A stretch of DNA of 64,000 bases, from NCBI GenBank assembly GCA_938048755.1, contig CALIUG010000081.1, positions 271 through 64,270 of the forward strand, in the 5' to 3' direction. How positions within the stretch are numbered: the stretch's first letter is position 1; each line of letters begins with the position of its first letter. The notes beneath the pieces were generated by a model, which made no database searches, was not told the origin of the DNA, and saw only the letters and a program-made list of their open reading frames with translations. This document shows, one piece after another, positions 20,844 through 49,699 of the stretch. Both the position numbers and the translations under genes were made by a program. This DNA comes from an uncultured Alphaproteobacteria bacterium. GTDB taxonomy: Bacteria > Pseudomonadota > Alphaproteobacteria > SP197.

Positions 20844-21605
20844 TCAGACTTCGTTCTGTCCGGCCTTGAAGCGCCTTACCCACGCACGGCTCGTCGCGTC
20901 GGCCAGCTTCGCAACACCGGGTTCCACGCCATCGGCTTTCGCTCCATTGCGACCCAGATAGACCAGCACCTCGCGCAGGGTTTCGATCGGACTTGCCGAG
21001 AAGGTTTCGTAACAGAGGCGCAAGGGCTCGATGTCTTCCCGGTCAAACCAGTCTTCCCAGGCACGATCGTGGGCTTCCATCTCCGCGACACAGTTCCCAA
21101 TCCTGTCGCCGTCGTAGGTCAGCGCCTGGGGCTCCGAGAGGCGTTCCAGCTCGGTTCCGTCGGGTACCTTGTGCCAGAGGCCGCTTTGCTGCGCCTTCAC
21201 ATAGGAGACCGCCTGCTCGACCTTGTCGTGCCGGGAAAGATGGATGAAGCAGGTCCGGCCGAACGCCGCTTCCAGGCGGTCGCGATCCCGCGTGCATTCC
21301 GGATGCAGTATGGCGAGCTTCCCGACAAAGAAGTCAAAGCTATGGCGCTGCAGTCGCAGTCCGAACATTCCGGTCTCAAGACTTCCTTCGGCGATCGCAG
21401 CCTTGAACGTTTCGTCCAGGACGTCGTGCTCGCAGCCGGCAGCATCAGGCGCAAGACCGAGCTCCCTACGCCAGCTCGCGACGGAAGGCTCATGGAAATA
21501 GGATTCGGGATTACCTGCGACGCCGGTCGCAATCAGCAGCTTGCACAACAGCGTGCTGCCACTGCGTGGCGCGGTGCAGATCACATAGGAATCATAGACG
21601 CTCAC
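20844..21605 (-). CDS. Stf0-family PAPS-dependent sulfotransferase
   Basis: 253 aa. The N-terminus YVICTAPRSGSTLLCKLL is the 5'-phosphosulfate-binding loop of Stf0-type (trehalose 2-sulfotransferase-like) enzymes. Confidence 0.7.
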   Translation of the reverse strand: MSVYDSYVICTAPRSGSTLLCKLLIATGVAGNPESYFHEPSVASWRRELGLAPDAAGCEHDVLDETFKAAIAEGSLETGMFGLRLQRHSFDFFVGKLAILHPECTRDRDRLEAAFGRTCFIHLSRHDKVEQAVSYVKAQQSGLWHKVPDGTELERLSEPQALTYDGDRIGNCVAEMEAHDRAWEDWFDREDIEPLRLCYETFSASPIETLREVLVYLGRNGAKADGVEPGVAKLADATSRAWVRRFKAGQNEV

Positions 21606-26254: not shown

Positions 26255-26845
26255 TTATTGACCCAGCTGGGCAATGCGCATCTGGCGCGCGCGGGTCAGG
26301 ACCGCATCGACCAGGGAGGCCGGTGTGGCGGGATCGACCGCGGCCTCGTACCAGGCACCATCAGCACCGCGCAGCTGACGGTTGACCTGCACCTGCACGC
26401 CGTCGGCACGCAGCCTGGTATCGAGAATGTAGACCGTCACCTTGAAGCGCTCGTTGGGCGTTTCGGGCGATGCGTACCAGTCATAGATGATCACGCCGCC
26501 CAGCGGATCGGCCGAAATCGGAGGCAGAAAGGCAAAGGTATCGAGCGAGGCGCGCCACAGGAACGCGTTGACGCCCAGACCGGCACCGCCGCCTTCGTCC
26601 GGTCTTGTCTCGTCCCACAGGTTGCTGATGCCGCCGGCGCCAAAAATGGTCTGCCGGTTGGGATCGTTCACATCCGGCTCGAACCGGCCCTGCGAGGTCT
26701 GGGTCGTGTCTTCGACACCGTCATAGGTCACATTGCCGCAGGCGCCAAGCAGCCCGGCCATCAGGATGACGGCCGCGCCGCGGCAGCACCAGGTGGCAAA
26801 GGTTGTGTTGTTGACGTCCGTGGAAGCTTGAAAACGTGAGGTCAA
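26255..26845 (-). CDS. DUF3576-like lipoprotein
   Basis: Probable lipobox LLGAC; conserved periplasmic domain. Start codon uncertain. Confidence 0.5.
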   Translation of the reverse strand: MTSRFQASTDVNNTTFATWCCRGAAVILMAGLLGACGNVTYDGVEDTTQTSQGRFEPDVNDPNRQTIFGAGGISNLWDETRPDEGGGAGLGVNAFLWRASLDTFAFLPPISADPLGGVIIYDWYASPETPNERFKVTVYILDTRLRADGVQVQVNRQLRGADGAWYEAAVDPATPASLVDAVLTRARQMRIAQLGQ

Positions 26846-27249
26846 GGCGGATGGGTTCCTGTCGGGTCCAGAAGCGCCGCACCTTGGCGCAGGACACGGT
26901 TTCGGGCAAGCATGATCTTACCGGTGACCGTCACCTCTTATTGCGGCAATGTTATGACCGCTCTGTCCGAGGGTTCGGGCCTGTGGCACCTGTTCCAATG
27001 TGGGCCACATTGATGCATTCGTGCAACAGTGCGCCGGAAACGCAACAAACCCTGTCGAAAGCCGTGGAAATCCACGTGTCTGTCTTGTTAGGTTTGTTTC
27101 GCGAAATCGGCGGGAGACCACTCCAACGTTGAGGCCCCACGCAACGACGCAAGTCAGAGCAAGGGTGTTGGAGGGGTCAAACGTCGATAGCCTTTCCGTT
27201 CCGGAAAGACGCTTGGCACTTGAGCAGTCCTTAAAGGAGGTTTGCGCTT

Positions 27250-28482
27250 ATGAAAAAGGTTCTTCTTGGAACCACGGCGCTTGTCTCGGCGGGTCTTGTT
27301 GCGCAGAACGCGCAGGCAGCCGATCCGATCGAGTTGAGTGTTGGTGGTTATCACGACTGGGCGTTCTTCTTCGCGAAGAACGATGACAACCCGGCTGCGG
27401 GCACCCTGCCTGCTGAGCCTGGTTTTAACTTCGGCGACCATGACATCAAGTTTGACGGTGAAGTTCAGCTTCGCGGTTCGACGGTTCTGGACAATGGCCT
27501 CGAAGTCGGTGTTCGCATCGAGATCGAAGGCGAGACCCAGGGCGATCAGCTCGACGAGAACTACGCCTGGATTGAAGGTTCCTTCGGTACCTTCCGTTTC
27601 GGCAACGACGATCCCGTCTCCGCGCAGATGGCAACTGCCGCTCCGTACCTGAACTACGTCTTCGGCGCCAACTCGCCGACCGTGTTCGCGAACGGTCTGT
27701 CGCAGTTCTTCGCACGTTCGGGCTCCACGGGCATTGGTACTGCCGGTGGTACGCTGCGTTCGCGTTTCGCCGCTGGTGCATATGCCACCTTCGCGACGTT
27801 CCCGAACCAGTCGTTCGATGATGCGCAGCTCATCTACTTCACACCTGTGTTCAACGGCTTCCAGTTCGGTGTCTCCTATGCCCCGAACAACACCGAAGCC
27901 CAACCAGCCGGTGTGTATCTGCTCCCCAACAAGATTGGCACCGCGTCGACCTCGCCTGCGATCACGCATGGTGAAGTCTACTCGGTCGCTGGTCGTTACG
28001 ACGGTTCCGTTGGCGATCTCGGTGTGACCGTGGCCGCTGGCTGGATGCGCATGGAACAGAAGGCCATCTCCAACCCTGCCGGCACGCTGCAGGGTGCGGA
28101 TTCGGATGCATGGGACGTCGGCCTGGTGCTCTACTGGGGCAACTGGGGTCTTGGTGGTTCGTACCTGAACAACCAGGACTGGCATAACGTCTCGGGCACC
28201 GACACGGAAGCCTTCGACATCGGTCTGGCCTACTGGTCGGACGGAGCATGGTCGGCAGGTATCTACTGGTTGCACCAGGAAATCGACTACGCCGCTGGCA
28301 ACCTGGTTGCTGGTGTGGACATCACCGATGAGTTCGATGCTTATCGTCTGATGGGTCAGTATGACCTGGGTCCGGGCATTGCCGTCACGGGCGCGCTGGG
28401 TCTCGACACCTTCGAAGATGGTGTTGTGAACCGCGAGTACGAGACGCAGATGGTCGGCGCCGGTATCATGATCGGCTTCTGA
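27250..28482 (+). CDS. Outer-membrane porin (alphaproteobacterial Omp2/RopA-like family), copy 1
   Basis: 410 aa; signal peptide MKKVLLGTTALVSAGLVAQNAQA, Gly/aromatic-rich beta-barrel and C-terminal Phe (IGF). Strong RBS AAGGAGG. Confidence 0.8.
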   Translation: MKKVLLGTTALVSAGLVAQNAQAADPIELSVGGYHDWAFFFAKNDDNPAAGTLPAEPGFNFGDHDIKFDGEVQLRGSTVLDNGLEVGVRIEIEGETQGDQLDENYAWIEGSFGTFRFGNDDPVSAQMATAAPYLNYVFGANSPTVFANGLSQFFARSGSTGIGTAGGTLRSRFAAGAYATFATFPNQSFDDAQLIYFTPVFNGFQFGVSYAPNNTEAQPAGVYLLPNKIGTASTSPAITHGEVYSVAGRYDGSVGDLGVTVAAGWMRMEQKAISNPAGTLQGADSDAWDVGLVLYWGNWGLGGSYLNNQDWHNVSGTDTEAFDIGLAYWSDGAWSAGIYWLHQEIDYAAGNLVAGVDITDEFDAYRLMGQYDLGPGIAVTGALGLDTFEDGVVNREYETQMVGAGIMIGF

Positions 28483-28509
28483 TCTCACGATCAGAGACTT
28501 CTACGTCAA

Positions 28510-28540
28510 GGGGCGGCCTTCGGGTCGCCCCTTTTCTTTT
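28510..28540 (+). terminator. Rho-independent terminator after porin copy 1
   Basis: GGGGCGGCC-TTCG-GGTCGCCCC hairpin followed by TTTTCTTTT. Confidence 0.7.
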
Positions 28541-29009
28541 GCGCTATGACCAGGCGCCCCCAGGCAGAATGTCTCTGCCTGACATGACGGCTTCTGGCCT
28601 GGACGGCAGACAGCCGCAACCATGGTTCTTCCGACCACGCGGCAGTCCGGGCCATTTCGGCAGGCCCATCACACAAACGCGAACCGTTTTCACGGCGCCG
28701 CGATCCAGCACGACAGGTTAACGGTCACGTCCGCATGCCCTTTGACGGATCGGCAGAATCTCTCCTGATTTCTCAAGCGTCCGTGAAGGTCACTGACGGC
28801 ATCGTTGATTCGTTACCAGCACCTTGAGGCGTTCCATACATGGGCTGCAAGCCGAGGCCCGTCGGCGCGGTATAGGACCTCAACCCCGCACCGCTCCAGC
28901 ATCAAAGACGGGCCTCTCAATCCGCCACGGCGCTCACCGTGGTCAGGACCGTTCAAGTGCCAGGTTGTCGTGATGGAACATCAGGACTGCTGCAAGGAGG
29001 TTTGCGCTT

Positions 29010-30239
29010 ATGAAGAAAGTACTACTTGGAACGACCGCGCTGGTTTCGGCAGGTCTGCTTGCGCAGAACGCGCAAGCTGCCGACCCGATCGAACTCAGTG
29101 TCGGCGGCTATCACAACTGGTTGTGGTTCTTTGCCGATAACGATGACAATCCGGCTGCGGGCACCCTGCCTGCTGAGCCTGGTTTCAACCTCGGCGACCA
29201 TGACATCAAGTTTGACGGTGAAGTTCAGCTTCGCGGTTCGACGGTTCTGGACAATGGCCTCGAAGTCGGTGTTCGCATCGAGATCGAGGGTGAAACCCAG
29301 GGCGATCAGCTCGACGAGAACTACGCCTGGATTGAAGGTTCCTTCGGTACCTTCCGTTTCGGCAACGACGATCCCGTCTCCTACATCATGGCGACGGCTG
29401 CGCCGTATCTGAACTATCTGTTTGCGGCGAACTCGCCGACCGTATTTGCAAACGGTCTCTCGCAGTTCTTCGCACGTTCGGGTTCAACCGGTATTGGCCC
29501 AGGCGGAACACTGCGTTCGCGTTTCGCCGCTGGTGCCTATGCCACCTTTGCGACGTTCCCGAACTCTACCTTTGATGATGCGTCGCTCTACTACTTCACA
29601 CCTGTGTTCAACGGCTTCCAGTTCGGTGTCTCCTATGCCCCGAACAACACCGAAGCCCGCCCAGCCGGTGTGTATCTGCTCCCCGTCAAGGTTGGTGGCA
29701 CGTCGACCTCGCCTGCGTTCACGCATGGTGAAGTCTACTCGGTCGCTGGCCGTTACGATGGGGCCGTGGGTGATCTTGGCGTGACCGTTGCGGCGGGTTA
29801 TCTGCGCGTCAACCAGAAGGCGATCTCCAATCCTCCCGGCACAATGACAGGTGCAGACGAGGATACCTATGATCTCGGCCTGGTACTCTACTGGGGCAAC
29901 TGGGGTCTTGGTGGTTCGTACCTCAACGCCACCGACTGGCATAATGTCTCGGGTACCGATACCGAATCCTTCGATGTTGGTCTGGCCTACTGGTCCGACG
30001 CCATATGGTCGGCCGGTATCTACTGGTTGCACCAGGAAATCGACTATGCCGCCGGCAACCTGGTTGCCGGAGCGAACATCACCGATGAGTTCGATGCTTA
30101 TCGTCTGATGGGTCAATATGACCTGGGTCCGGGCATTGCTGTTACGGGTGCTCTGGGTCTTGATACCTTCGATGACGGTGTCGTGAACCGTGAGTACGAG
30201 ACACGCATGGTCGGTGCAGGTATCAGCATCGGCTTCTGA
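29010..30239 (+). CDS. Outer-membrane porin, copy 2 (tandem paralog, about 85% identical to copy 1)
   Basis: 409 aa; signal peptide MKKVLLGTTALVSAGLLAQNAQA. Long stretches are nucleotide-identical to copy 1. Confidence 0.8.
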   Translation: MKKVLLGTTALVSAGLLAQNAQAADPIELSVGGYHNWLWFFADNDDNPAAGTLPAEPGFNLGDHDIKFDGEVQLRGSTVLDNGLEVGVRIEIEGETQGDQLDENYAWIEGSFGTFRFGNDDPVSYIMATAAPYLNYLFAANSPTVFANGLSQFFARSGSTGIGPGGTLRSRFAAGAYATFATFPNSTFDDASLYYFTPVFNGFQFGVSYAPNNTEARPAGVYLLPVKVGGTSTSPAFTHGEVYSVAGRYDGAVGDLGVTVAAGYLRVNQKAISNPPGTMTGADEDTYDLGLVLYWGNWGLGGSYLNATDWHNVSGTDTESFDVGLAYWSDAIWSAGIYWLHQEIDYAAGNLVAGANITDEFDAYRLMGQYDLGPGIAVTGALGLDTFDDGVVNREYETRMVGAGISIGF

Positions 30240-30267
30240 TCTCGCGATCGGAGGCATACGACGTCAA

Positions 30268-30299
30268 GGGGCGGCCTTCGGGTCGCCCCTTTTCTGTTT
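30268..30299 (+). terminator. Rho-independent terminator after porin copy 2
   Basis: Identical hairpin GGGGCGGCC-TTCG-GGTCGCCCC followed by TTTTCTGTTT. Confidence 0.7.
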
Positions 30300-30361
30300 G
30301 CGATGCTCCCGGCATGGCCCTTTGGCGTCATGGTGTGTTAAGTCAGAACGCGAAAATCACG

Positions 30362-31219
30362 ATGGTGTCGATGGGCAATCTTATCTGGCTCGCCTCCTAC
30401 CCGAAATCGGGCAACACCTGGATGCGCGCCTTTCTGACCAACCTGATGACGAATGCGGAACGGCCGGCCGGGATCAACGAACTGGGTGCGGTTGCCATAG
30501 GCGATTCCGAGCCTGGGCGCTACGAACGTCTCTCGGGCAAGGTGGCTTCAGAGCTTGATGCTGCCGCCGTTGCGGCGCTGCGCCCGAAGGTGCAGGCCCA
30601 GATTGCCGCCGAGTTGCCCTCTACCCGGTTCGTGAAGATCCACAGTGCCATGATGCAGACGGCCGGGCATCCCAGTGTCAACATGCAGGTCACCGCAGGT
30701 GCTATCTACATCGTGCGCAATCCGTTGGATGTCGCGCTCTCCTTTGCGCACCATCTGGGATCAACCGTCGATGACGTGATCGACCTGATGGCGCGCGACA
30801 ACACGGTCACCGACAGTACGCCGGTGGCCGTCTCGGAACTGATCGGAAGCTGGAGCCAGCATGTTGCAAGCTGGACTGCCAGGCCCAATCCCGGCCTTCA
30901 TGTCGTGCGTTACGAGGACATGCTGAGCGGACCGCAATCTGCCTTTGGCAAGGTCGTCAAGTTCCTGCAGCTCCAGGCCCCACGCCCGCGCATCGACAAG
31001 GCGATCCGCCATGCCTCGTTCAAGGTCCTGCGCAACCAGGAAGAACGCGATGGTTTCCGGGAACGCAGTGAACATGCTGACCACTTTTTCCGATCCGGCA
31101 AGGCCGGCGGCTGGCGTGACACTCTTTCGCCAAAGCAGGTTTCCGCCATTGTTGACCGTCACGGCGAACAAATGGCGCGGTTCGGATATCTCCCCGAGTC
31201 CCGTCAGGGAGATACCTGA
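30362..31219 (+). CDS. SULT-like PAPS-dependent sulfotransferase, array member 1 of 9
   Basis: IWLASYPKSGNTW (5'-PSB loop), FVKIHSA (catalytic His region), IYIVRNPLDVALSF (3'-PB region) and FFRSGKAGGWR. Start codon uncertain (ATG at 30362 or 30371). Confidence 0.8.
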   Translation: MVSMGNLIWLASYPKSGNTWMRAFLTNLMTNAERPAGINELGAVAIGDSEPGRYERLSGKVASELDAAAVAALRPKVQAQIAAELPSTRFVKIHSAMMQTAGHPSVNMQVTAGAIYIVRNPLDVALSFAHHLGSTVDDVIDLMARDNTVTDSTPVAVSELIGSWSQHVASWTARPNPGLHVVRYEDMLSGPQSAFGKVVKFLQLQAPRPRIDKAIRHASFKVLRNQEERDGFRERSEHADHFFRSGKAGGWRDTLSPKQVSAIVDRHGEQMARFGYLPESRQGDT

Positions 31220-31221
31220 CC

Positions 31222-32058
31222 ATGAGTCGCATCATCTGGCTGGCAAGCTTCCCCAAGTCGGGCAACACCTGGACGCGAATCTTCCTGCTCAACCTGTTCA
31301 TGAATCCGTCCAGGCCGCTATCGATCAACGAAGTCCCGGAAATGTCGCCTTCCGACGTCGCGTCGGCCTGGTACGAGATGTTCGACAAGCGGCCCCGAAG
31401 CCAATGGAGCTTGGGGGATGTGGCAAAGCTGCGCCACCAGGTGCAGGAAGAGATCGCCAGCAAGACGCCCGATTCCATCTTTGTGAAAACCCACAGTCCG
31501 CTCCTGCCCTGGCAGGGTGTGCCGGCCTTCAACATGAAGGTGACTGCCGGGGCGGTCTGCATCGTGCGCAACCCGCTTGATGTTGTCGCCTCTTATGCCA
31601 GCCACTCGGGCCTCGATTATGACGGCATCATCAAGGTGATGGCGCGCGAGGATTACACGGCTCCGGGTGGTGATGATCGCGTTCCCCACCCGATCGGAAG
31701 CTGGTCGCAGAACGTTGCAAGCTGGACCGCCCGGCCTCATCCGGCCATGCATGTCATGCGCTACGAGGACATGGTCGAGAATCCGGAGGAAACCTTTGGA
31801 AAGCTTGTTGCCTTCCTGCGGCTTCCTCCCGACCCCGACCGCCTGAAGAAGGCCATTGCATTCTCGTCCTTTGACGAGGTGCAGAAGCAGGAATCCGCCG
31901 GGGGCTTCGAGGAGGCGAGCAAGAAGGCGGATCGCTTCTTCCGTGGCGGCAAGACTGGCGGATGGCGCAAGGAACTCACGCCTGAACAGGTCCGCGCCGT
32001 CGTGTCAGTCCACCGTGAGCAGATGGCACGCTTTGGTTATGTTCCGGAAGGTTACTGA
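31222..32058 (+). CDS. SULT-like sulfotransferase, array member 2
   Basis: MSRIIWLASFPKSGNTW, VKTHSP, CIVRNPLDVVASY, FFRGGKTGGWR. Confidence 0.8.
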   Translation: MSRIIWLASFPKSGNTWTRIFLLNLFMNPSRPLSINEVPEMSPSDVASAWYEMFDKRPRSQWSLGDVAKLRHQVQEEIASKTPDSIFVKTHSPLLPWQGVPAFNMKVTAGAVCIVRNPLDVVASYASHSGLDYDGIIKVMAREDYTAPGGDDRVPHPIGSWSQNVASWTARPHPAMHVMRYEDMVENPEETFGKLVAFLRLPPDPDRLKKAIAFSSFDEVQKQESAGGFEEASKKADRFFRGGKTGGWRKELTPEQVRAVVSVHREQMARFGYVPEGY

Positions 32059-32900
32059 TGGGCAAGATCGTCTGGCTGGCCAGCTATCCCAAATCCGGCA
32101 ACACGTGGATGCGCGCGTTTCTGCACAACCTGTTCCGGAACCCGGATCGTCCGTTGCCGCTGGAACAGTTGGGCGGCGGCAATCTGACGACTGCCGAAAC
32201 GGCCATGAACTGGTACCAGGCGCTGGATCCGCGTCCTCCCGCGGAATGGTCGCAGGAAGAAATCGATGCCATGCGCCTGGAGGTCCATGAAGCCATCGCA
32301 GCGTCCGTACCCGGCAACATCTTCTGCAAGATTCATGGCGCGATCTTCGAGCTGCGTGGCCGCATGACCGTCAACCTGGCGGTCAGTGCGGGCGCCATCT
32401 ACATCGTGCGCAATCCGCTCGACGTCGTGCTGTCCTATGCCGACTTTCAGGGCATCAGTGTCGATGTCGCCATCACGGCGCTGGGTGCGCGAAACTTCGA
32501 ACTTCCCCGCGACGCCGGCAATGTGTCCGAGCCCCTGGGTAGCTGGTCCCAGAATGTCGAGAGCTGGACCGGTAAACCCAATCCTGCCCTGCATGTCGTG
32601 CGCTATGAGGACCTCATCGCCAAACCGGTGGCGACCTTTAGCGGCGTTGCCAAATTCCTGGGCATCGACGCCCCGCGTCCACGCCTGGAAAAGGCCGTGC
32701 GCCATTCCTCCTTCAAGGTCCTGCGCAACCAGGAGGACAAGACGGGCTTTTCCGAGCGGTCTCCGGCACAGGAGCGGTTCTTCCGGAGCGGCAAGTCCGG
32801 TGGCTGGCGCAAGGGTCTCACCGACGAACAGGTCGCGCGCATCGTGGAGGACCATCGTGAGCAGATGGATCGTTTCGGCTACATTCCGGAAGGCTGCTGA
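32058..32900 (+). CDS. SULT-like sulfotransferase, array member 3
   Basis: MGKIVWLASYPKSGNTW, CKIHGA, IYIVRNPLDVVLSY, FFRSGKSGGWR. Start overlaps the previous stop. Confidence 0.8.
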   Translation: MGKIVWLASYPKSGNTWMRAFLHNLFRNPDRPLPLEQLGGGNLTTAETAMNWYQALDPRPPAEWSQEEIDAMRLEVHEAIAASVPGNIFCKIHGAIFELRGRMTVNLAVSAGAIYIVRNPLDVVLSYADFQGISVDVAITALGARNFELPRDAGNVSEPLGSWSQNVESWTGKPNPALHVVRYEDLIAKPVATFSGVAKFLGIDAPRPRLEKAVRHSSFKVLRNQEDKTGFSERSPAQERFFRSGKSGGWRKGLTDEQVARIVEDHREQMDRFGYIPEGC

Positions 32901-33742
32901 TGGGCAAGATCGTGTGGCTGGCCAGTTACCCCAAATCCGGAAACACCTGGATGCGCGCCTTTCTGCATCACTTCTTCCGCAATCCTGACGCGCCGATTCC
33001 GCTCAACCAGTTGGGCGGCGGCAACCTCACGACGTCGGAGACCGGCCTGCACTGGTATCAAGCGCTTGATCCGCGACCGCTGGCAGAATGGAGCGCAGAA
33101 GAGATCGCGGCCATGCGTCCGAAGGTTCAGCAGGCCATCGCAGCTTCGGTATCGGGCAACATCTTCTGCAAGATTCATAGCGCCTTGTTCGAACTGCGTG
33201 GCAGCATGACCGTTGATCTGGCCGTCAGCGCGGGCGCCATCTACATCGTGCGCAATCCGCTCGACGTGGTGGTATCCTTTGCCGACTATCAGGGGGTCAC
33301 GATCGACATCGCGATCAAGGCCATGGGCATGGCGAACTTCGAACTGCCGCGCGACGGCGACGCCATCACGTCGCCGCTTGGAAGCTGGACCCAGAATGTC
33401 CGGAGCTGGACCGCCAAACCCAGCCCGGCCCTGCATGTCGTGCGTTATGAGGACATGCTGGATGATCCCCAGGCAACCTTCGGCGGCGTGGTCCGGTTTC
33501 TGGGTGTGGACAGCCCGCCCGAGCGGATCGAGAAGGCGGTGCGCCATTCCTCGTTCAAGGAGCTGAGGGCCCAGGAAGATGCCACCGGATTTGTCGAGCG
33601 CTCACCTTCCCAGGAGCGATTCTTCCGCAGTGGAACCTCCGGCCAGTGGCGCGATGCCCTGAACGACGAGCAGATCGCGGCCATTGTCGGCGACCATCGT
33701 GAGCAGATGGCACGCTTCGACTATATCCCCGACGGATTCTGA
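32900..33742 (+). CDS. SULT-like sulfotransferase, array member 4 (about 75% identical to member 3)
   Basis: MGKIVWLASYPKSGNTW, CKIHSA, IYIVRNPLDVVVSF, FFRSGTSGQWR. Confidence 0.8.
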   Translation: MGKIVWLASYPKSGNTWMRAFLHHFFRNPDAPIPLNQLGGGNLTTSETGLHWYQALDPRPLAEWSAEEIAAMRPKVQQAIAASVSGNIFCKIHSALFELRGSMTVDLAVSAGAIYIVRNPLDVVVSFADYQGVTIDIAIKAMGMANFELPRDGDAITSPLGSWTQNVRSWTAKPSPALHVVRYEDMLDDPQATFGGVVRFLGVDSPPERIEKAVRHSSFKELRAQEDATGFVERSPSQERFFRSGTSGQWRDALNDEQIAAIVGDHREQMARFDYIPDGF

Positions 33743-33745
33743 ACG

Positions 33746-34609
33746 ATGGGCAACATCCTGTGGCTTGCGAGTTATCCGAAGTCCGGCAACACCTGGATGC
33801 GGGCGTTTCTGCACAACGTCCTGCGTGACCCCGATCAACCCGCAGACATCAACCAGATGACCGGTACGCTGACACAAGGTGAGTCCTCCATGGGCTGGTA
33901 CCGTGTCGCCAATCCGCGTCCGCCCGAACAGTGGTCACCTGCCGAAATCGCGCGCATGCGGCCCCATGTCCACGAGATGATCGCCAAGGGTCAGAAGGGC
34001 ACGGTGTTCTGCAAGACCCACAACGCGCTGATCAAGGTAGAGGGGCAACCCACGATCAACACGCGTGTCACCGCCGGTGCCATTTACATCGTGCGCAACC
34101 CGCTGGATGTCCTGCTTTCCTTTGCCGATTTTCAGGCGGTCTCGATCGATGAGGCCATCACGATCATGGCGCAACGAAATTTTGCGACACCCCTGACCGA
34201 CCGGAACGTGCCCGAAACGCTGGGGAGCTGGTCTCAGCATGTGTCGAGTTGGACGGCACAGGAAAGCAAGAGCCTGCATGTGGTGCGTTACGAGGATCTG
34301 CTCGAAGACCCGGTCAAGACCTTCGGTGACACGCTTGCCTTCATGAAACTTGATGTCTCACGCGCCCGCCTCGACAAGGCGATCCGCAATGCATCCTTCA
34401 AGGAATTGCGCAAGCAGGAAGAGCAGAAGGGTTTCAACGAGCGTCCCGATCACCAGGAACGCTTTTTCCGCAAGGGCGTCGCCGGTCAGTGGAAACAGGA
34501 GCTGAACCGAGAACAGATTGCCCGCATTTGCGAGGATCATGGTGACCAGATGGCGCGTTTCGGCTATCTCCCCGATAGCTACAAACCACAGACGAAATTG
34601 GAGGCTTGA
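33746..34609 (+). CDS. SULT-like sulfotransferase, array member 5
   Basis: MGNILWLASYPKSGNTW, CKTHNA, IYIVRNPLDVLLSF, FFRKGVAGQWK. Confidence 0.8.
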   Translation: MGNILWLASYPKSGNTWMRAFLHNVLRDPDQPADINQMTGTLTQGESSMGWYRVANPRPPEQWSPAEIARMRPHVHEMIAKGQKGTVFCKTHNALIKVEGQPTINTRVTAGAIYIVRNPLDVLLSFADFQAVSIDEAITIMAQRNFATPLTDRNVPETLGSWSQHVSSWTAQESKSLHVVRYEDLLEDPVKTFGDTLAFMKLDVSRARLDKAIRNASFKELRKQEEQKGFNERPDHQERFFRKGVAGQWKQELNREQIARICEDHGDQMARFGYLPDSYKPQTKLEA

Positions 34610-34612
34610 CCG

Positions 34613-35449
34613 TTGGGCCAGATTATCTGGATTGCGAGTTATCCCAAGTCGGGCAACACCTGGACCCGTGCGTTTCTGCACAACCTGTTCCGTGATCCCA
34701 AGACGTCGTTCAACATCAACGACATGACCCTGTTGACGGCAAACGAAGCGGCCAACGCGCACTATCGCGACCTCGACCCCCGCTCCTGGGAGGAGTGGAG
34801 CAACGAGGATGTTGCGGCCATGCGTCCGCGGGCACAGGCGATTCTGGCGGCGTCACGGCCCCATACGATTTTTGCCAAGACCCATCTGGCAGTCCTGCAC
34901 CTGCGCGGCCATCCCACGATCAACATGAACGTGACGGCTGCCGCAGTCTATCTCATCCGCAATCCGCTGGATGTGACGGTTTCCTTTGCCGATCATCAGG
35001 GGCTCACCATCGATCAGCAGATCGAAGTTCTCAACCTGAAGAACTATGAGACGCCCAACGGTCCAACGCTGGTCAACGAACCCATGGGAACCTGGTCCCA
35101 GCATGTCGAAAGCTGGACTGCCCGGCCCAATCCCGGTCTCCACGTCATGCGCTACGAGGACATGCTGGTCAATCCGGTCAAGAGTTTCGGTAGCCTGGTG
35201 AAGTTTCTCCGGCTCGATACTCCGCGTTCGCGCATCGAACGCGCAGTCAAGAATTCCTCCTTCAAGGTTCTGCGCAAGCAGGAAGAACTGCACGGCTTCA
35301 GCGAACGCACGGTTGCGCAGAAGAACTTCTTCCGTTCCGGCAAGTCCGGCCAATGGAAGGACGTGTTGACCGACGAGCAGGTCGCCAAGGTCTGCGAGGC
35401 GCACCACGATCAGATGGCCAGGTTCGGGTACCTGCCGGAAGGGTACTGA
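34613..35449 (+). CDS. SULT-like sulfotransferase, array member 6
   Basis: TTG start; GQIIWIASYPKSGNTW, AKTHLA, VYLIRNPLDVTVSF, FFRSGKSGQWK. Confidence 0.75.
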   Translation: MGQIIWIASYPKSGNTWTRAFLHNLFRDPKTSFNINDMTLLTANEAANAHYRDLDPRSWEEWSNEDVAAMRPRAQAILAASRPHTIFAKTHLAVLHLRGHPTINMNVTAAAVYLIRNPLDVTVSFADHQGLTIDQQIEVLNLKNYETPNGPTLVNEPMGTWSQHVESWTARPNPGLHVMRYEDMLVNPVKSFGSLVKFLRLDTPRSRIERAVKNSSFKVLRKQEELHGFSERTVAQKNFFRSGKSGQWKDVLTDEQVAKVCEAHHDQMARFGYLPEGY

Positions 35450-35455
35450 GGACTT

Positions 35456-36292
35456 ATGGGCAAGATCATCTGGATCGCGAGCTATCCCAAATCCGGCAAC
35501 ACCTGGATGCGCATCTTCCTGTTCAACCTGCTGGCAGATGCACCCGACCCGCTTCCTCTTTCGGAAGTCAGCCGGATGTCGACCTCCGATACCGTGCTGC
35601 GCTGGTATACCGAAGTCGACGACCGCGACCCAGCGAGCTGGACCACCGAGGAGGTCGCTGATCTGCGCCTGAAGATGCAGCAGCACATGACGACGCTGTC
35701 GCCCGAGCCGACCTTCATGAAGACCCATGCCGCCCTGGTGCCCATGGCCGGACGCCAGCCCTTTGACATGGAAGCCACCACTGGTGCGATCTATATCGTG
35801 CGCAATCCCCTGGATGTCGCAGCGTCCTATGCACGCCATGCCGGCGTGCCGGTCGATGAGATCATCAAGGTCATGAGTACGCCCAACCACATGCTGCCAC
35901 GCAACGAGTCGCTGGCCGAGTTTGTTCAGGGTGGCTGGTCGCAACATGTGATGAGCTGGACCCGCATGCCCAATCCGGCCGTCCACGTCATGCGCTATGA
36001 AGACCTTGCAGCGGATGCCTCCGAAGCGTTCGGCAAGGTGTGCAGTTTCCTGAAGCTCGACCTGGAGCCAGAGCGTGTCGCGCGCGCCGTCGATCACGCC
36101 TCGATCGCGTCCTTGCGCAAGCTGGAGGACGAACAGGGTTTCAACGAGAAGAGCGACCATCAGGACCGGTTCTTTGGTGAAGGTGGCGTCGGCGCCTGGC
36201 AGCGTGAACTCAGCGAAGACCAGGCGCGCCAGATTGTTGATCGCCATCGCGATCAGATGACACGCTTTGGGTACGTGCCCGAGGGCTGGTGA
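35456..36292 (+). CDS. SULT-like sulfotransferase, array member 7
   Basis: MGKIIWIASYPKSGNTW, MKTHAA, IYIVRNPLDVAASY, FFGEGGVGAWQ. Confidence 0.8.
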   Translation: MGKIIWIASYPKSGNTWMRIFLFNLLADAPDPLPLSEVSRMSTSDTVLRWYTEVDDRDPASWTTEEVADLRLKMQQHMTTLSPEPTFMKTHAALVPMAGRQPFDMEATTGAIYIVRNPLDVAASYARHAGVPVDEIIKVMSTPNHMLPRNESLAEFVQGGWSQHVMSWTRMPNPAVHVMRYEDLAADASEAFGKVCSFLKLDLEPERVARAVDHASIASLRKLEDEQGFNEKSDHQDRFFGEGGVGAWQRELSEDQARQIVDRHRDQMTRFGYVPEGW

Positions 36293-36296
36293 ACCC

Positions 36297-37136
36297 ATGG
36301 GCAAGATCCTGTGGCTCGCGAGTTATCCCAAGTCCGGCAATACCTGGGTGCGCCTGTTTCTTGCCAATCTGTTCAAGGGGGATGGCAGTGCTCCGGTCGC
36401 GCTGGACCGGATCGGCGAGGCGACGCTGGCGGAACCGGGAACGGCCGGTTTTGCGCTGCTCGACCAGCGTCCCTGGCAGGAATGGAGCATCGAGGACATC
36501 GCCCGCATGCGCCCGCAGGTACAAGAGCGGATCGCGGCCACCGGCGAAGGGGTTGTTCCCGTCAAGACGCACAGCGCCTTTGTCATGGTCCGCGGCACAC
36601 CGTCGATCAACATGGGCGTGACCGCTGGCGCGGTTTATGTCGTGCGCAATCCGCTTGATATCGCGGTCTCCTATGCCCACCACCAGGGTCTCACCATCGA
36701 CGAGATCATCGCGATCATGGCCAGGGACATGTTTACGACGCCGACCAATGCGACCAACGTGTATGAGGTCATGGGCTCCTGGTCGCAGCATGTTGCGAGC
36801 TGGACCGCCAGCGCCAGCCCCATGATGCATGTCATGCGTTATGAAGACATGCTTGGCGATCCCCATGCGGCCTTTGGCGATCTTGCCCGTTTCATGCGTG
36901 TTGAAGCCGATGATGCGACCGTTGCCAACGCGGTCGCGATGAGCGCGTTCGACAAGGTTGCAGACCAGGAAGCAAAGGAAGGCTTTCAAGAACGCACACC
37001 TGCGCAGGACCGCTTCTTCCGGGCAGGGAAGGCCGATCAGTGGCGCGATGTGCTGACGGACCAACAGGTCTCTGATGTCGTGGGGGCGCATCGTGAACAG
37101 ATGGCCCGGTTCGGCTACATCCCGGACGGATTTTAG
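36297..37136 (+). CDS. SULT-like sulfotransferase, array member 8
   Basis: MGKILWLASYPKSGNTW (start trimmed to Met11 of the ORF), VKTHSA, VYVVRNPLDIAVSY, FFRAGKADQWR. Confidence 0.8.
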   Translation: MGKILWLASYPKSGNTWVRLFLANLFKGDGSAPVALDRIGEATLAEPGTAGFALLDQRPWQEWSIEDIARMRPQVQERIAATGEGVVPVKTHSAFVMVRGTPSINMGVTAGAVYVVRNPLDIAVSYAHHQGLTIDEIIAIMARDMFTTPTNATNVYEVMGSWSQHVASWTASASPMMHVMRYEDMLGDPHAAFGDLARFMRVEADDATVANAVAMSAFDKVADQEAKEGFQERTPAQDRFFRAGKADQWRDVLTDQQVSDVVGAHREQMARFGYIPDGF

Positions 37137-37148
37137 GATCCGACGGAG

Positions 37149-37988
37149 ATGGGCAGGATCCTCTGGCTCGCCAGCTATCCCAAATCTGGCAACACCTGGA
37201 TGCGGGCCTTCCTGCACAACCTGATTGTCGACAAGGGTGGCCCGCTGGACCTCAACGCCATGTCGAAGGGCGCGCTGATGGACGCTGCCTATCAGCACTA
37301 TGTGCCGCTCACCGATCAGGATCCGCGCCAGTTGAGCCGGGAGGACATCGCCCGCCTGCGTCCGCGCATGCAGGCGGCGCTGGCGGCAGGCAGGCCAGGC
37401 ACGCTGTTTGTGAAGACCCATACCGCGCTTACCATGCTGGCGGGCCATCCCAGCCACGACCCCGAGCTCACCCTTGGCTCGATCTACATGGTGCGCGACC
37501 CCCGTGATGTTGCCGTCAGCTATGCCGACCATCTGGGCCTTTCCATCGACGGGGCCATCGACGCCATGGCGCGCGAGAATGCCCAGACTGACGCCAGCGA
37601 CAAGGGCGTCACCGAGTTCATCGGAAGCTGGTCCCAGAATGTGACCGGCTGGACCCGTCAGACATCCGGCACGGTTCTGGTACTGCGCTACGAAGACATG
37701 CTCGACCAGCCCGCAGAGGCTTTCGGCAGGGTCGTTGCCTTCCTGGGCCTGGAGCGCTCGCCACAGCAGGTCGAAAAGGCGATCGAGAACACCAGCTTCG
37801 AGCAGCTCGCCCGTCAGGAGGCGCAGGCGGGCTTCCAGGAGCGTTCGATCAAGCAGGAGAAGTTCTTCCGGCGTGGCCGTTCCGGGTCCTGGCGGTCTAT
37901 GCTCTCGTCCGAACAGGCCGCAAGGCTGGCCGCTGATCACGGCGAGGTAATGCGGCGCTTCGGCTATCTCGAGGATGAGGCACCATGA
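37149..37988 (+). CDS. SULT-like sulfotransferase, array member 9
   Basis: MGRILWLASYPKSGNTW, VKTHTA, IYMVRDPRDVAVSY, FFRRGRSGSWR. Confidence 0.8.
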   Translation: MGRILWLASYPKSGNTWMRAFLHNLIVDKGGPLDLNAMSKGALMDAAYQHYVPLTDQDPRQLSREDIARLRPRMQAALAAGRPGTLFVKTHTALTMLAGHPSHDPELTLGSIYMVRDPRDVAVSYADHLGLSIDGAIDAMARENAQTDASDKGVTEFIGSWSQNVTGWTRQTSGTVLVLRYEDMLDQPAEAFGRVVAFLGLERSPQQVEKAIENTSFEQLARQEAQAGFQERSIKQEKFFRRGRSGSWRSMLSSEQAARLAADHGEVMRRFGYLEDEAP

Positions 37989-38665
37989 ACGACCACAGCG
38001 ATGTCAGAGAAAACCTGGATGCGGTGAAGGCCGAGATTTCCGCTGCAGAACAGGAGGCAGGCCGCGACAAGGGCTCCGTCACGCTGGTTGCGGTCTCAAA
38101 GACCCATGACGGCGCACGCATCCGCCCGGCTCTGGAAGCGGGCCACCGTGTCTATGGTGAAAACCGCGTGCAGGAAGCCCAGGGCAAGTGGCCTGAACTG
38201 AAGGCGGTGTTCGAGGGTGTCGAGCTCCATCTGATCGGACCCCTGCAGACCAACAAGTCTGACGACGCGGTTGCCCTGTTCGATGTCATCGAAAGTGTCG
38301 ACCGGCCCAAGCTGGTCCATGCCCTGGCCCGTTCGATGGAAAAACTGGGTCGCCGACCGGCCTGTTTCATCCAGGTCAACACGGGTGAAGAGGATCAGAA
38401 GGCGGGTTGTCTGCCCGATGATACCGATGCCCTGGTGGCGCAGGCCCGTGACGCAGGGCTCGATGTGGTCGGTCTCATGTGCATTCCCCCGTTTGACGAG
38501 GAGCCTTCGCTCCACTTTGCCCTGCTGGCAGATCTCGCAAAACGTAACGGCCTCACGCAACTTTCCATGGGCATGTCGGGGGATTACGAAACGGCGGTGG
38601 CATTTGGCGCCACCCATGTGCGGGTCGGCACGGCAATCTTCGGAGCCCGGCCGAAACTGACATGA
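37985..38665 (+). CDS. yggS: PLP-homeostasis protein, YggS/PROSC family
   Basis: 226 aa with the alanine-racemase-N-like fold; VSKTHD PLP-lysine motif. Confidence 0.9.
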   Translation: MNDHSDVRENLDAVKAEISAAEQEAGRDKGSVTLVAVSKTHDGARIRPALEAGHRVYGENRVQEAQGKWPELKAVFEGVELHLIGPLQTNKSDDAVALFDVIESVDRPKLVHALARSMEKLGRRPACFIQVNTGEEDQKAGCLPDDTDALVAQARDAGLDVVGLMCIPPFDEEPSLHFALLADLAKRNGLTQLSMGMSGDYETAVAFGATHVRVGTAIFGARPKLT

Positions 38666-38668
38666 GTC

Positions 38669-39196
38669 TCATGCGGCCACGGTAAGATTGCCCAGGACGC
38701 CATCGTAGATCAGGATTTTTCCTGAAAGGAACATGCGTCCGAACAGTACCGGAAGATTGGGCGGTAACTCCGTTCCAACAAACTGTTCTATCCGCATCTC
38801 GTCGAGTTCCGGCACCCTGTAGCACAACAGATACACCGGCACCGGTTTGGCAGCGACGCCGTGTACGCTGTAGCTCTCGATGAAATCTACGGGACGGGCG
38901 CCCAGTTGATGGGCATAGGCGTTCGTTACCACGTTGAAATCCGCGCCCGTATCGATCAGAGCATGAACACGATGTGCGGGTCCGAATACGGTCTGGTCCG
39001 GCTCATGCGAGTCTGGACGGGCAAGGTCGATCGAAATCCAGGGTCCGACTTGAGCAAGGGCTTCAGCGGATGTGAAGCCAAGATCGTCAGGAAGTCTCTT
39101 CGAAAGGACCGGCACCGCAACGTCCCAACATGGCAGCAGGTGATAGACAGGCGTAGTTGCGGCCGATCTGGCGCAGGAGAAACGGTTCTTCGGCAC
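38669..39196 (-). CDS. Retropepsin-like (clan AA) aspartic protease
   Basis: ALIDTGADFNVVT matches the DTGA active-site motif of bacterial retropepsin-like proteases. The N-terminal roughly 110 nt overlap the adjacent small ORF in a different frame; the only alternative in-frame start is a GTG near 39115. Confidence 0.55.
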   Translation of the reverse strand: MPKNRFSCARSAATTPVYHLLPCWDVAVPVLSKRLPDDLGFTSAEALAQVGPWISIDLARPDSHEPDQTVFGPAHRVHALIDTGADFNVVTNAYAHQLGARPVDFIESYSVHGVAAKPVPVYLLCYRVPELDEMRIEQFVGTELPPNLPVLFGRMFLSGKILIYDGVLGNLTVAA

Positions 39197-49685: not shown

Positions 49686-49699
49686 GCGCCCGGCACCAT

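Follow-up and report, generated by a model that had tools for sequence, protein, structure and literature searches.

Nine tandem sulfotransferase genes between porin genes and yggS in an uncultured alphaproteobacterium: a probable operon built by old tandem duplication

Why would a bacterium keep nine sulfotransferase genes side by side, and how did they come to be there? The locus that raises this question lies between porin genes and yggS in a 64,000-nucleotide stretch of DNA (the window) from an uncultured aquatic alphaproteobacterium. An earlier note had described nine tandem, co-directional sulfotransferase genes at 30314-37988, and the list of open reading frames (ORFs) has nine + strand ORFs where that note placed them, spanning 30371-37988 and all matching Pfam PF00685 (Sulfotransfer_1): S1 (30371..31219; E 2e-31), S2 (31222..32058; E 2e-29), S3 (32058..32900; E 1e-28), S4 (32900..33742; E 2e-29), S5 (33746..34609; E 1e-30), S6 (34613..35449, with a TTG start; E 6e-31), S7 (35456..36292; E 6e-30), S8 (36297..37136; E 4e-25) and S9 (37149..37988; E 6e-34). 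The end of the proposed span is thus retained and its beginning is not: S1 most likely starts at 30371 rather than at the alternative annotated start, 30314, because the ATGGGCAA start is kept in five arrays and the upstream extension is not. Similarly, the start of S8 is most likely 36297, as opposed to the TTG at 36267 of the mechanical ORF. With these conserved ATGGGC-type starts, the intergenic gaps from S1 to S9 are 2, -1, -1, 3, 3, 6, 4 and 12 bp (the S3 start overlapping the S2 stop by 1 nt), in keeping with the compact spacing of 0-12 bp, with overlaps, noted before. A DNA repeat scan sees the genes as nine in-register copies, 836-867 nt apart, with 60-88% nucleotide identity by repeat family.

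What do these genes encode? All nine products match Sulfotransfer_1 over its full length (positions 4-255 of the 255 in the profile, with E values from 4e-25 to 5e-34). The hallmark motifs had been ascribed to every copy, and this is correct for the PAPS loop [YF]PKSGNTW, for K(T/I)H and for the 3'-phosphate motif R(N/D)PxDxxxS (9/9 each), whereas FFRxGxxGxW is found in 8/9, S7 carrying FFGEG instead. S9 has RDPRD for RNPLD, a signature common to its orthologs. The claim that every copy is catalytically intact therefore needs qualifying: the catalytic motifs are present in all nine, but in S7 and all of its orthologs the Arg is missing from the 3'-phosphate motif FFRxG, and S7 may bind the donor differently or be non-catalytic. 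The array motifs align with K48, H108, R130, S138 and R257 of human SULT1A. Structure prediction, one of the checks that the earlier note proposed, gave an AlphaFold (AF2) model of S5 with a pLDDT of 93.9, for which the top Foldseek matches are Teg12, SULT2A1, SULT1E1 and StaL, placing S5 closest to Teg12, StaL and the animal SULT1/2 enzymes. Sequence matches of S9 in the PDB are to SULT1A1/1A2 and Teg12. The sequences support the conclusion that all nine genes encode SULT/Sulfotransfer_1-type enzymes that keep the PAPS-binding and catalytic motifs, the S7 Arg excepted. By homology, PAPS would be bound through the N-terminal PKSGNTW loop, the RNPxDxxxS motif and the C-terminal FFRxGxxGxW loop, and the conserved His of K(T/I)H would be the base that activates the acceptor hydroxyl. 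No signal peptide is found, the PAPS loop starting at residue 11. Such enzymes had been thought uncommon in bacteria, an impression that does not hold for this subfamily: with E<=1e-10 as the limit it comprises at least 7,903 clusters (90% identity), and with E<=1e-30 it comprises 1,319 (50% identity).

The closest solved relatives are the sulfotransferases of glycopeptide antibiotics, Teg12, Teg13, Teg14 and StaL (PDB 3MGB, 3NIB, 2OV8, 4EEC). Like the array enzymes, these are bacterial, cytoplasmic, single-domain Sulfotransfer_1 proteins of about 280 aa with the catalytic His and the PAPS motifs; they have a near-identical N-terminus (WIASYPKAGNTW versus WLASYPKSGNTW) and rank first among the Foldseek matches (E 7e-14, TM 0.65-0.70; phmmer E 4e-15). 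However, they are just 19-24% identical to the array enzymes and serve as tailoring enzymes in actinomycete NRPS glycopeptide clusters, while the array has no biosynthetic cluster, sits in a housekeeping locus, has nine copies and is linked to porin and yggS genes. The cytosolic SULTs of animals and plants (SULT1A1, 1E1, 2A1 and the Arabidopsis SOTs) belong to the same Pfam family and share the fold and catalytic residues, but they are eukaryotic, non-operonic and only about 20% identical, and they act on hormones, xenobiotics and secondary metabolites. These SULT families are multigene and often tandem, with members that differ in their acceptor-binding loops, and they offer the closest parallel to the way in which the array may work. 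NodH and NoeE are also alphaproteobacterial and PAPS-dependent, and act on a secreted signal. Membership in either group was rejected, since the sole match, between NoeE and S9, scores 14.8 bits, far below the cutoff of 500; nod genes are absent from the vicinity of the array.

Is the array real? It is: an independently assembled array is 99.6% identical over 13.3 kb at the nucleotide level, and orthologous arrays are found in five other genomes, which excludes the assembly artefact that the earlier note had named as a possible refutation and shows that the array is old. A survey of copy number and a phylogeny, both suggested in that note, bear this out. The five genomes (L080, L091, L090, L085 and L092) have 5, 8, 9, 10 and 10 copies, respectively, which are 1:1 orthologs with best matches running collinearly from S1 to S9, even in genomes where YggS is just 79-90% identical. 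Six ortholog groups have bootstrap values of 100/100, those of S1, S2, S6, S7 and S8 among them, and each group conserves its own sequence signatures. The S4 group has 92/100; S4 is the youngest duplicate, from the S3 lineage, and L091 and L080 lack it as a separate copy. Pairwise amino acid identity among the nine copies is 40-74% (mean 49%), with S3 and S4 closest at 74%, close to the earlier estimate of about 45-75% with the same closest pair, and the longest exact word common to any two copies is 38 nt. The dN/dS ratios of ortholog pairs are 0.045-0.125 (0.12 for S1, 0.07 for S3 and S7, 0.045 for S5), similar to those of yggS and porin, at dS values of 0.5-1.3 that are near saturation in some pairs. 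That the copies are redundant or decaying duplicates, kept for dosage or as pseudo-enzymes, or that the array is an artefact, is scarcely credible in view of these data. The missing PAPS-binding Arg in S7 would fit decay, as would the fragmented copies in some long-read relatives (L084, L086). Against this, every copy is a full-length ORF with catalytic motifs, each ortholog pair has a low dN/dS (0.05-0.13), the copies are far too dissimilar for a recent amplification or a collapsed repeat, and independent assemblies concur. The fragmentation in L084 and L086 also hits leuS and trpS, and is presumably of the kind typical of long-read frameshift errors. As to novelty, a literature search found no published description of the array, as the earlier note had expected, but arrays of 8-10 copies were already present in public MAGs (e.g., GCA_002722885.1 and GCA_018675555.1), some of their proteins being named generically in the source as "sulfotransferase" or "sulfotransferase domain-containing protein".

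Where did the array come from? To its left is a pair of Porin_4 genes, porin 1 (27250..28482, +; PF13609 E 3e-33) and porin 2 (29010..30239, +; an ORF directly 5' of the array), which are 89% identical in amino acid sequence, preceded by a DUF3576 gene (26255..26845, -; PF12100 E 5e-38), the conserved left-hand neighbor of the porin/sulfotransferase slot. To its right are yggS (37985..38665, +; PLP-binding protein family, PF01168 E 4e-20), trpS, trmB, metK and lnt. The context reported earlier, with two porin genes 5', yggS 3' and a separate Stf0-family gene (20844-21605, -, from the window ORF scan), is thus borne out. The same note had seen in the array an accessory island, and a horizontally acquired island would indeed explain why a block of housekeeping genes is interrupted; moreover, the slot draws mobile DNA in some relatives, with insertion sequences (IS) in L084-L087 and integrases in L007 and L023. 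On the other hand, the GC and GC3 content of the array equals that of its flanks, its collinear 1:1 orthologs diverge across genomes about as much as yggS does, and the slot is ancestral in many orders, being occupied by 1-4 homologs in about 30 loci of diverse Alphaproteobacteria that have the gene order holA-lptE-leuS-DUF3576 / porin-SULT(1-4)-yggS. Among 79 related loci, relatives of the porin are within 4 kb of a sulfotransferase in 34, relatives of DUF3576 in 32 (beside the porin in the synteny map) and yggS in 22 (3' of the sulfotransferase in the mapped ones). Acquisition as an island is thus very improbable and largely refuted. Since the order leuS / DUF3576 / porin - terminator - SULT(1-4) - yggS is common to many Alphaproteobacteria, the array is, judging by the sequences, an old expansion of an ancestral slot and no foreign island. 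A single ancestral sulfotransferase gene, such as sits between the major porin gene and yggS in many Alphaproteobacteria, would have given rise to nine copies by old serial tandem duplication. These duplications would predate the split of several related genera, and since then each paralog would have persisted as an ortholog group of its own, under purifying selection and without change of order.

How might the array be expressed? The terminator-like sites that flank it are strong hairpins after the porin genes only, both intrinsic terminators: one after porin 1 (28508..28543, +), with an 11-bp GC-rich stem and a T run, and a near-identical one (repeat family D13) after porin 2 (30266..30301, +), which is conserved in five arrays. 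Of 31 junctions between porin and sulfotransferase genes that were inspected, nearly all show a GC-rich stem-loop after the porin. The terminator scan gave no convincing terminator inside the array, and no promoter for it was found. Because these hairpins are strong and the second lies only about 70 nt from the S1 start, transcription of the array is probably reduced and would come either from polymerase reading through from the porin promoter or from a weak promoter that escaped recognition, and translation would probably be coupled from cistron to cistron. The yggS gene is probably the last cistron, because its start overlaps the S9 stop by 4 bp (ATGA). The reading that we consider probable is that of one operon of nine cytoplasmic PAPS-dependent O-sulfotransferases with the SULT/Teg12/StaL fold, ending in yggS, that arose by old serial tandem duplication.

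Why nine enzymes? Variation between the copies is concentrated in three segments (S5 residues about 29-57, 93-107 and 140-156), in line with the diversification of acceptor loops suggested earlier. The variable loops of the Teg12, Teg13 and Teg14 paralogs give them different regiospecificities, and by analogy with Teg12 and the SULTs we infer that the three segments line the acceptor site. In that case each of the nine would sulfate an acceptor of its own, or a position of its own on related acceptors. The preferred, weakly held view is that the acceptors are hydroxylated compounds of low molecular weight, perhaps short peptides, which pass the outer membrane by way of the neighboring channel; in the wider family, too, an outer-membrane channel, either a porin or a TonB receptor, is a neighbor. 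Clues from context conflict, with the porin or TonB receptor, the polysaccharide genes of L080, and the lasso-peptide clusters and PqqD fusion each suggesting something different.

One alternative, doubtful as it stands, is that the nine enzymes sulfate peptides or proteins, each paralog having its own residue or context, either on a ribosomal peptide encoded elsewhere in the genome or on an envelope protein, for example the adjacent porin, that has yet to be exported. Teg12 and StaL, the closest solved structures, act on peptide aglycones. Family members are fused to the PqqD peptide-recognition domain and to an HPr-kinase-like domain; TPR-Sulfotransfer_3 proteins are nearby in 22 related loci and 2OG-Fe oxygenases in 6, and porin-SULT pairs recur as units. 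The nearest homologs with an interpretable biosynthetic context, from plasmids of Thalassobaculum (sp. OXR-137) and Tistrella (T. mobilis pTM1), are of the same subfamily, align over 97-98% of the length and lie inside lasso-peptide clusters with a cyclase-like asparagine synthase, PqqD, a B2 protease, an HPr-kinase homolog and a nucleotidyltransferase; putative sulfotransferases have been noted in such clusters (PMC8498205). However, these homologs are distant (34-37% identity) and present in single copy per RiPP cluster, their function being putative, while the array has no RiPP genes: a precursor-peptide gene, cyclase, protease and PqqD are absent in and near it, and no peptide gene would fit into the short intergenic gaps. 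For the porin, nine enzymes to two porins is an odd ratio, and we know of no precedent for cytoplasmic sulfation of a Sec-exported porin. Even so, the wider-family evidence points to peptides at least as much as to small molecules, lipids or glycans.

It is also unlikely that the array decorates an envelope glycan or lipid (LPS core, O-antigen, capsule, exopolysaccharide or membrane lipid) with regiospecific sulfates at the cytoplasmic face before export. Glycan sulfation, as in glycosaminoglycan biosynthesis, typically uses a fixed set of many regiospecific sulfotransferases, and several neighbors have an envelope theme (the porins, lptE, DUF3576 and the L,D-transpeptidase YkuD, which is 3' of yggS in 12 loci). 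Furthermore, the 5-copy array of L080 directly follows genes for a Wzx-type flippase, GT4 and GT9 glycosyltransferases, a methyltransferase and other sulfotransferases; but this polysaccharide block may be an unrelated insertion, because it stands in place of the porin and contains the remnant of an IS. Glycosyltransferase and flippase genes are absent near the array in the window and in most related loci, and in both fold and sequence the enzymes belong with the cytosolic SULT/Teg12 type rather than with the carbohydrate sulfotransferase families. Stf0 of mycobacteria and LpsS of Sinorhizobium meliloti are likewise PAPS-dependent bacterial sulfotransferases and act on envelope glycans, but the known rhizobial LPS enzyme, LpsS, carries a Stf0-family annotation (PMC12445080), and that family (PF09037) is distinct from Sulfotransfer_1 in Pfam, is matched by none of the nine array genes and has its own separate gene in the window.

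The earlier note saw no genes for PAPS synthesis in the window, and cysD, cysN, cysC and cysH are indeed absent among the roughly 40 window ORFs scanned, a subset of all ORFs. Close homologs of the array genes elsewhere directly adjoin cysD and a cysN-cysC fusion.

Nine plus-strand open reading frames of 278–301 aa each lie within 30314-37988, and at the DNA level they appear as nine in-register repeats with a period of 836–867 nt and, depending on the repeat family, 60–88% nucleotide identity. The same DNA repeat scan revealed no inverted repeats or shufflon-like structure in 26800-38800. The encoded proteins, S1 to S9, are 40–74% identical in pairwise comparison (mean 49%), S3 and S4 being the closest pair (74%). 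When conserved ATGGGC-type starts are used, the intercistronic gaps are 2, -1, -1, 3, 3, 6, 4 and 12 bp, and the yggS start overlaps the S9 stop (ATGA). S1 most likely starts at 30371, since the ATGGGCAA start is kept in five arrays and the upstream extension is not; the most likely start of S8 is 36297. The compact array of consecutive, same-strand genes proposed in the earlier note, which was made from the sequence without database searches, is thus confirmed by ORF listing, repeat scan and gap measurement.

What do these genes encode? All nine proteins match the Pfam profile Sulfotransfer_1 (PF00685) from end to end (profile positions 4-255 of 255; E-values of 4e-25 to 5e-34; 89–118 bits against a cutoff of 22), and Sulfotransfer_3 also matches them, overlapping and more weakly. 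By profile membership, the array belongs to Sulfotransfer_1 only. The PAPS-binding and catalytic residues of the SULTs are found in the segments TYPKSGTTW, LLKTHLPL, RNAKDVAVSY and FMRKGMAGDWK, with which the motifs of the array pair in a phmmer alignment to human SULT1A2. Of the columns of the nine-way alignment, 54 are invariant, among them those of the PKSGNTW Lys, the K(T/I)H His and, in R(N/D)PxDxxxS, the Arg and the Ser. This His, H91 in S1 numbering, aligns to LLKTHLPL of SULT1A2 and is the predicted catalytic base. The 5'-phosphosulfate loop [YF]PKSGNTW is present in all nine copies and in 41 of 41 orthologs examined, R(N/D)PxDxxxS likewise in 9/9, and the C-terminal FFRxGxxGxW in 8/9, with S7 as the exception. 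An AlphaFold2 model of S5, made from an alignment of 63 sequences (mean pLDDT 93.9, pTM 0.91), has as its best PDB matches Teg12 (E 7e-14), SULT2A1, SULT1E1, StaL and SULT1A1, at TM-scores of 0.6–0.7; 110 PDB chains matched at E<=1e-3, and the best 50 of the 110 are all sulfotransferases. Together, the full-length profile matches, the aligned motifs and the fold of the S5 model bear out the SULT-type identity that had been read from the sequence. The suggestion that the copies have diversified was also largely right: variation between the nine paralogs is focused in three segments, at S5 residues of about 29-57, 93-107 and 140-156. These are polar and acidic in make-up and carry no clear acceptor signal.

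An assembly artefact, a concern raised in the earlier note, can be ruled out. An independent assembly, ENA metagenome scaffold L081, has the same two porins, nine sulfotransferases and yggS, and over 13.3 kb its identity to the window is 99.6%; parts of the array are also found in Logan assemblies of other runs (L082, L083). The longest exact word shared by any two copies is 38 nt, which makes repeat collapse or expansion implausible. Related arrays occupy the same position in other genomes, with five copies on a closed 3.75-Mb contig (L080), eight in a Rhodospirillaceae MAG (L091, GCA_002722885.1; a protein of it is also listed from Tara), nine on an ENA contig (L090), ten on JGI and ENA contigs in which an IS splits the array (L085-L087), and ten, one of them frameshifted, in GCA_018675555.1 (L092). 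Near relatives thus carry arrays of 5–10 copies, and loci elsewhere mostly 1–4. The arrays are already present in public MAGs, where the source names of some proteins are generic. By best match, the copies in each related genome pair one to one with S1 to S9 in unchanged order. Ortholog identity is 55–94%, whereas the next-best paralog reaches 40–57%, or as much as about 72% where the S3 and S4 groups are compared, and YggS of the array-bearing relatives is 79–90% identical to that of the window. In a neighbor-joining tree, the S1, S2, S6, S7, S8 and S9 groups have bootstrap support of 100/100 and S4 of 92/100; the S3 and S5 groups are blurred by the most distant genome. Signatures of single groups, FFGEG for S7 and RDPRD for S9, agree with the orthology. 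Between the window and L085, dN/dS is 0.045–0.125 across the sulfotransferases, compared with 0.059 for yggS, 0.133 for the porin and 0.020 for trpS. The collinear one-to-one orthologs and the low dN/dS therefore indicate that the array is old, ordered and maintained gene by gene.

In the sister species represented by L084-L087, the interrupted array (e.g., L085:5768-9925) runs from a full porin gene and an S2-like copy, through an IS that encodes an rve-type transposase and a truncated piece of a porin gene, to nine more copies. The S2-like copy is only 66% identical to S2, and one of the nine, at L085:16044-16883, has no ortholog in the window.

Is every copy catalytically intact, as had been supposed? 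The PAPS loop, the His and R(N/D)PxDxxxS are indeed present in all nine, but S7 (35456-36292) lacks the Arg of FFRxG, having FFGEG in its place. FFG(E/D)G is common to every S7 ortholog in four other genomes (L085:14364-15200, L090:11765-12601, L091:11717-12559 and L092:11547-12383), and this group has therefore lost the Arg with which SULTs bind the 3'-phosphate of PAPS. S7 is under purifying selection (dN/dS 0.07); since the change is shared by all of its orthologs, it is a conserved peculiarity rather than decay. S7 may use the donor differently or have a non-catalytic role.

Where did the array come from? A scan of GTDB species representatives gave at least 79 loci, from Alphaproteobacteria, Lysobacterales, Shewanella, Verrucomicrobiota and other groups, most of the 79 listed having 1–4 sulfotransferase copies. 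With the proteins that flank the array in the window as markers of synteny, about 30 of the alphaproteobacterial loci listed had the order parB / holA-lptE-leuS-DUF3576 (minus strand) / porin–SULT(1–4)–yggS (plus strand). Carriers of this slot include Parvibaculum, Rhodobiaceae, Sneathiella, Kiloniellaceae, Pelagibius, Dongiaceae, Reyranellaceae and many MAGs; among cultured organisms, Parvibaculum indicum DSM 25305 (L030) has a porin, two SULT genes and yggS, and Pelagibius litoralis (L042) also carries the simple module. (In Pseudohoeflea coraliihabitans, L040, a homolog lies outside the porin–yggS setting.) In GC and GC3, the nine genes do not differ from their flanks. The shared slot and the flank-like composition therefore point to an ancient, lineage-specific tandem expansion of a core-linked gene, not to the accessory island that the genes had first been taken for. 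Nor does the supposed rarity of SULTs in bacteria hold for this subfamily, which comprises at least 7,903 clusters at 90% identity (E<=1e-10) and 1,319 clusters at 50% identity (E<=1e-30).

The two porin genes upstream (27250-28482 and 29010-30239) are 86% identical in nucleotide and 89% in amino acid sequence, with a mere 42% identity between their upstream regions. The predicted mature porins start with Ala-Asp, which we take to resemble the motif for L,D-transpeptidase cross-linking of alphaproteobacterial outer-membrane proteins to peptidoglycan. Each porin gene is followed by a strong terminator (28508-28533 and 30266-30291), and the two are nearly identical. No convincing terminator is found within the array, and no candidate sigma-70-like promoter lies in the stretch of roughly 70 nt that leads from the second terminator to S1; the sole match of the sigma-70 scan sits within the second porin gene, and the number of matches is below shuffle expectation. 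Rfam has no match in the whole window, and hence no known riboswitch or leader precedes the array. The same layout recurs at 31 porin-to-SULT junctions of other genomes, nearly all of which have the SULT start 77–355 nt past the porin stop and a GC-rich hairpin in between; the hairpin of the porin terminator is kept in five arrays. Purine runs resembling GAAGG or GAGGG, supplied by the conserved C-terminal P(E/D)G(Y/F) codons, lie a few nt ahead of the following start. From this arrangement, S1 to S9 and yggS probably form one transcription unit, along which translation would be coupled; its transcripts would come either from the porin promoter, by partial read-through of the terminator, or from a weak promoter that escaped recognition.

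In mechanism and evolutionary logic, the array is like the tandem SULT/SOT gene families of animals and plants, and like the Teg12/13/14 trio. Much is understood of SULT-fold sulfation in animals and plants; the bacterial cases known to us are mainly a few tailoring steps in antibiotic synthesis. StaL and the Teg enzymes, to which the nine are 19–24% identical, are encoded in a glycopeptide NRPS cluster and act on the heptapeptide aglycone, whereas the window has no NRPS or glycopeptide genes, so a glycopeptide sulfotransferase of this type can be rejected. Curated NCBIfam models do not match eight of the copies; S9 alone hits NoeE (NF052394), meaninglessly, at 14.8 bits against an equivalog cutoff of 500 bits. 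No description of the array or its subfamily was found in full texts, mostly outside subscription journals, an absence that is not proof. The genomic coupling of the sulfotransferases to the porin, its terminator and yggS is conserved.

None of the nine (0/9) matches the Stf0 profile PF09037. The rhizobial LPS sulfotransferase LpsS of S. meliloti is a member of the Stf0 family (PMC12445080), and LPS sulfation via an LpsS homolog is therefore rejected for the array. LpsS is thus related to another gene of the window, at 20844-21605 (minus strand) between parB and holA, whose assignment to Stf0 in the earlier note is upheld by PF09037 (E 2e-83) and which is to be preferred over the nine as a candidate for the sulfation of envelope glycans. 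The related alphaproteobacterial loci that were mapped yielded no Stf0 relative, and several of them (e.g., L001, L010, L030) have parB right beside holA, so the gene looks like a lineage-specific insertion.

What, then, is sulfated? Porin relatives lie within 4 kb of a sulfotransferase in 34 of the 79 listed loci, and Porin_4 is the commonest family among the nearest flanking ORFs; in several Gammaproteobacteria, seven of the listed loci, a TonB-dependent receptor takes the porin's place. Genes of PAPS supply, cysD and a cysN-cysC fusion, adjoin the sulfotransferase gene in five or six close relatives, which lends indirect support to a predicted transfer of sulfuryl groups from PAPS. TPR–Sulfotransfer_3 proteins without signal peptides are encoded nearby in 22 listed loci, and 2OG-Fe oxygenases in six. 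These clues are mixed, and we therefore commit ourselves only to the prediction that the nine are active PAPS-dependent O-sulfotransferases differing in acceptor specificity or regiospecificity. Small or medium hydroxylated compounds are our tentative choice of acceptor, made with low confidence. Peptides or proteins are rather unlikely acceptors for the array, even though the enzymes nearest to it in structure, Teg12 and StaL, have peptide aglycones as substrates. Members of the subfamily are fused to a PqqD peptide-recognition domain, an HPr-kinase-like domain or DUF6065 (P0213, P0249, P0151, P0181), and plasmid homologs from Thalassobaculum and Tistrella, 34–37% identical, lie within lasso-peptide clusters (L088:9001-9840, L089:8980-9849), in which putative, uncharacterised sulfotransferases have been noted (PMC8498205). 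From this, some members of the family seem to be tailoring enzymes of ribosomal peptides. However, the lasso cyclase, B1/B2 and precursor gene that surround the plasmid homologs are absent around the window array, which is thus rejected as a source of lasso-peptide tailoring enzymes. Envelope glycans or lipids are unlikely, although in L080 the array comes after a polysaccharide block (Wzx, GT4, GT9 and other sulfotransferases), and YkuD L,D-transpeptidases are encoded downstream of yggS in 12 listed loci. Other classes of acceptor make up the remainder.

It is possible, if doubtful, that the module of channel gene, terminator, SULT gene(s) and yggS is an undescribed alphaproteobacterial sulfation system with exported or envelope-associated products (sulfated peptides, lipids or glycans), expanded here to a combinatorial pathway of 8–10 enzymes making multiply or differently sulfated molecules. 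If so, its products would make up a bacterial organosulfate pool in aquatic systems that has escaped notice so far. Among uncultured aquatic Alphaproteobacteria, one clade keeps 8–10 distinct SULT-type enzymes in fixed order, under purifying selection and in a core chromosomal position, and the single-copy version of the module is widespread in the class, which implies a conserved set of sulfated bacterial products. Once the acceptors are known, bacterial sulfur and organosulfate metabolism would gain a new branch, the recurrent tie to outer-membrane channels and YggS might be explained, and nine related enzymes that differ naturally in specificity would become available for biocatalytic sulfation. 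With the simple module present in cultured organisms, the question can be tested directly.

Porin–SULT pairs are also met as recurring units away from the core synteny, where they lie amid tyrosine recombinases and transposases (L007, L008, L023, L034). Two long-read alphaproteobacterial MAGs (L007:1382-11992, L023:130-11992) have two or three such pairs each, some nearly identical, separated by clusters of tyrosine recombinases (five genes in L007, three in L023) and a transposase-like gene. The unit is either an integration hot spot or the cargo of a mobile element. The large, cytoplasmic TPR–Sulfotransfer_3 proteins (e.g., L011:9338-11389, L063:4245-5846) are encoded near members of this sulfotransferase family in Alpha- and Gammaproteobacteria alike; in the latter, a TonB-dependent receptor and a 2OG-Fe(II) oxygenase often accompany them. 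The literature yielded no description of such a gene set. Elsewhere in the window, a 175-aa ORF between yggS and trpS (38669-39196, minus strand) has weak, sub-threshold aspartyl-protease matches (E 3e-4), and its reality is uncertain, since the public gene calls of L081 give two ORFs of 87 and 90 aa there. A TauE/SafE-family anion (sulfite or organosulfonate) exporter gene (58397-59320, minus strand) is sulfur-related and has no evident link to the array. A PlsC-type acyltransferase gene (48855-49862, minus strand) lies beside one for an Acetyltransf_5 (GNAT) protein (49700-50554, minus strand), presumably an olsA/olsB-like pair of ornithine-lipid synthesis.
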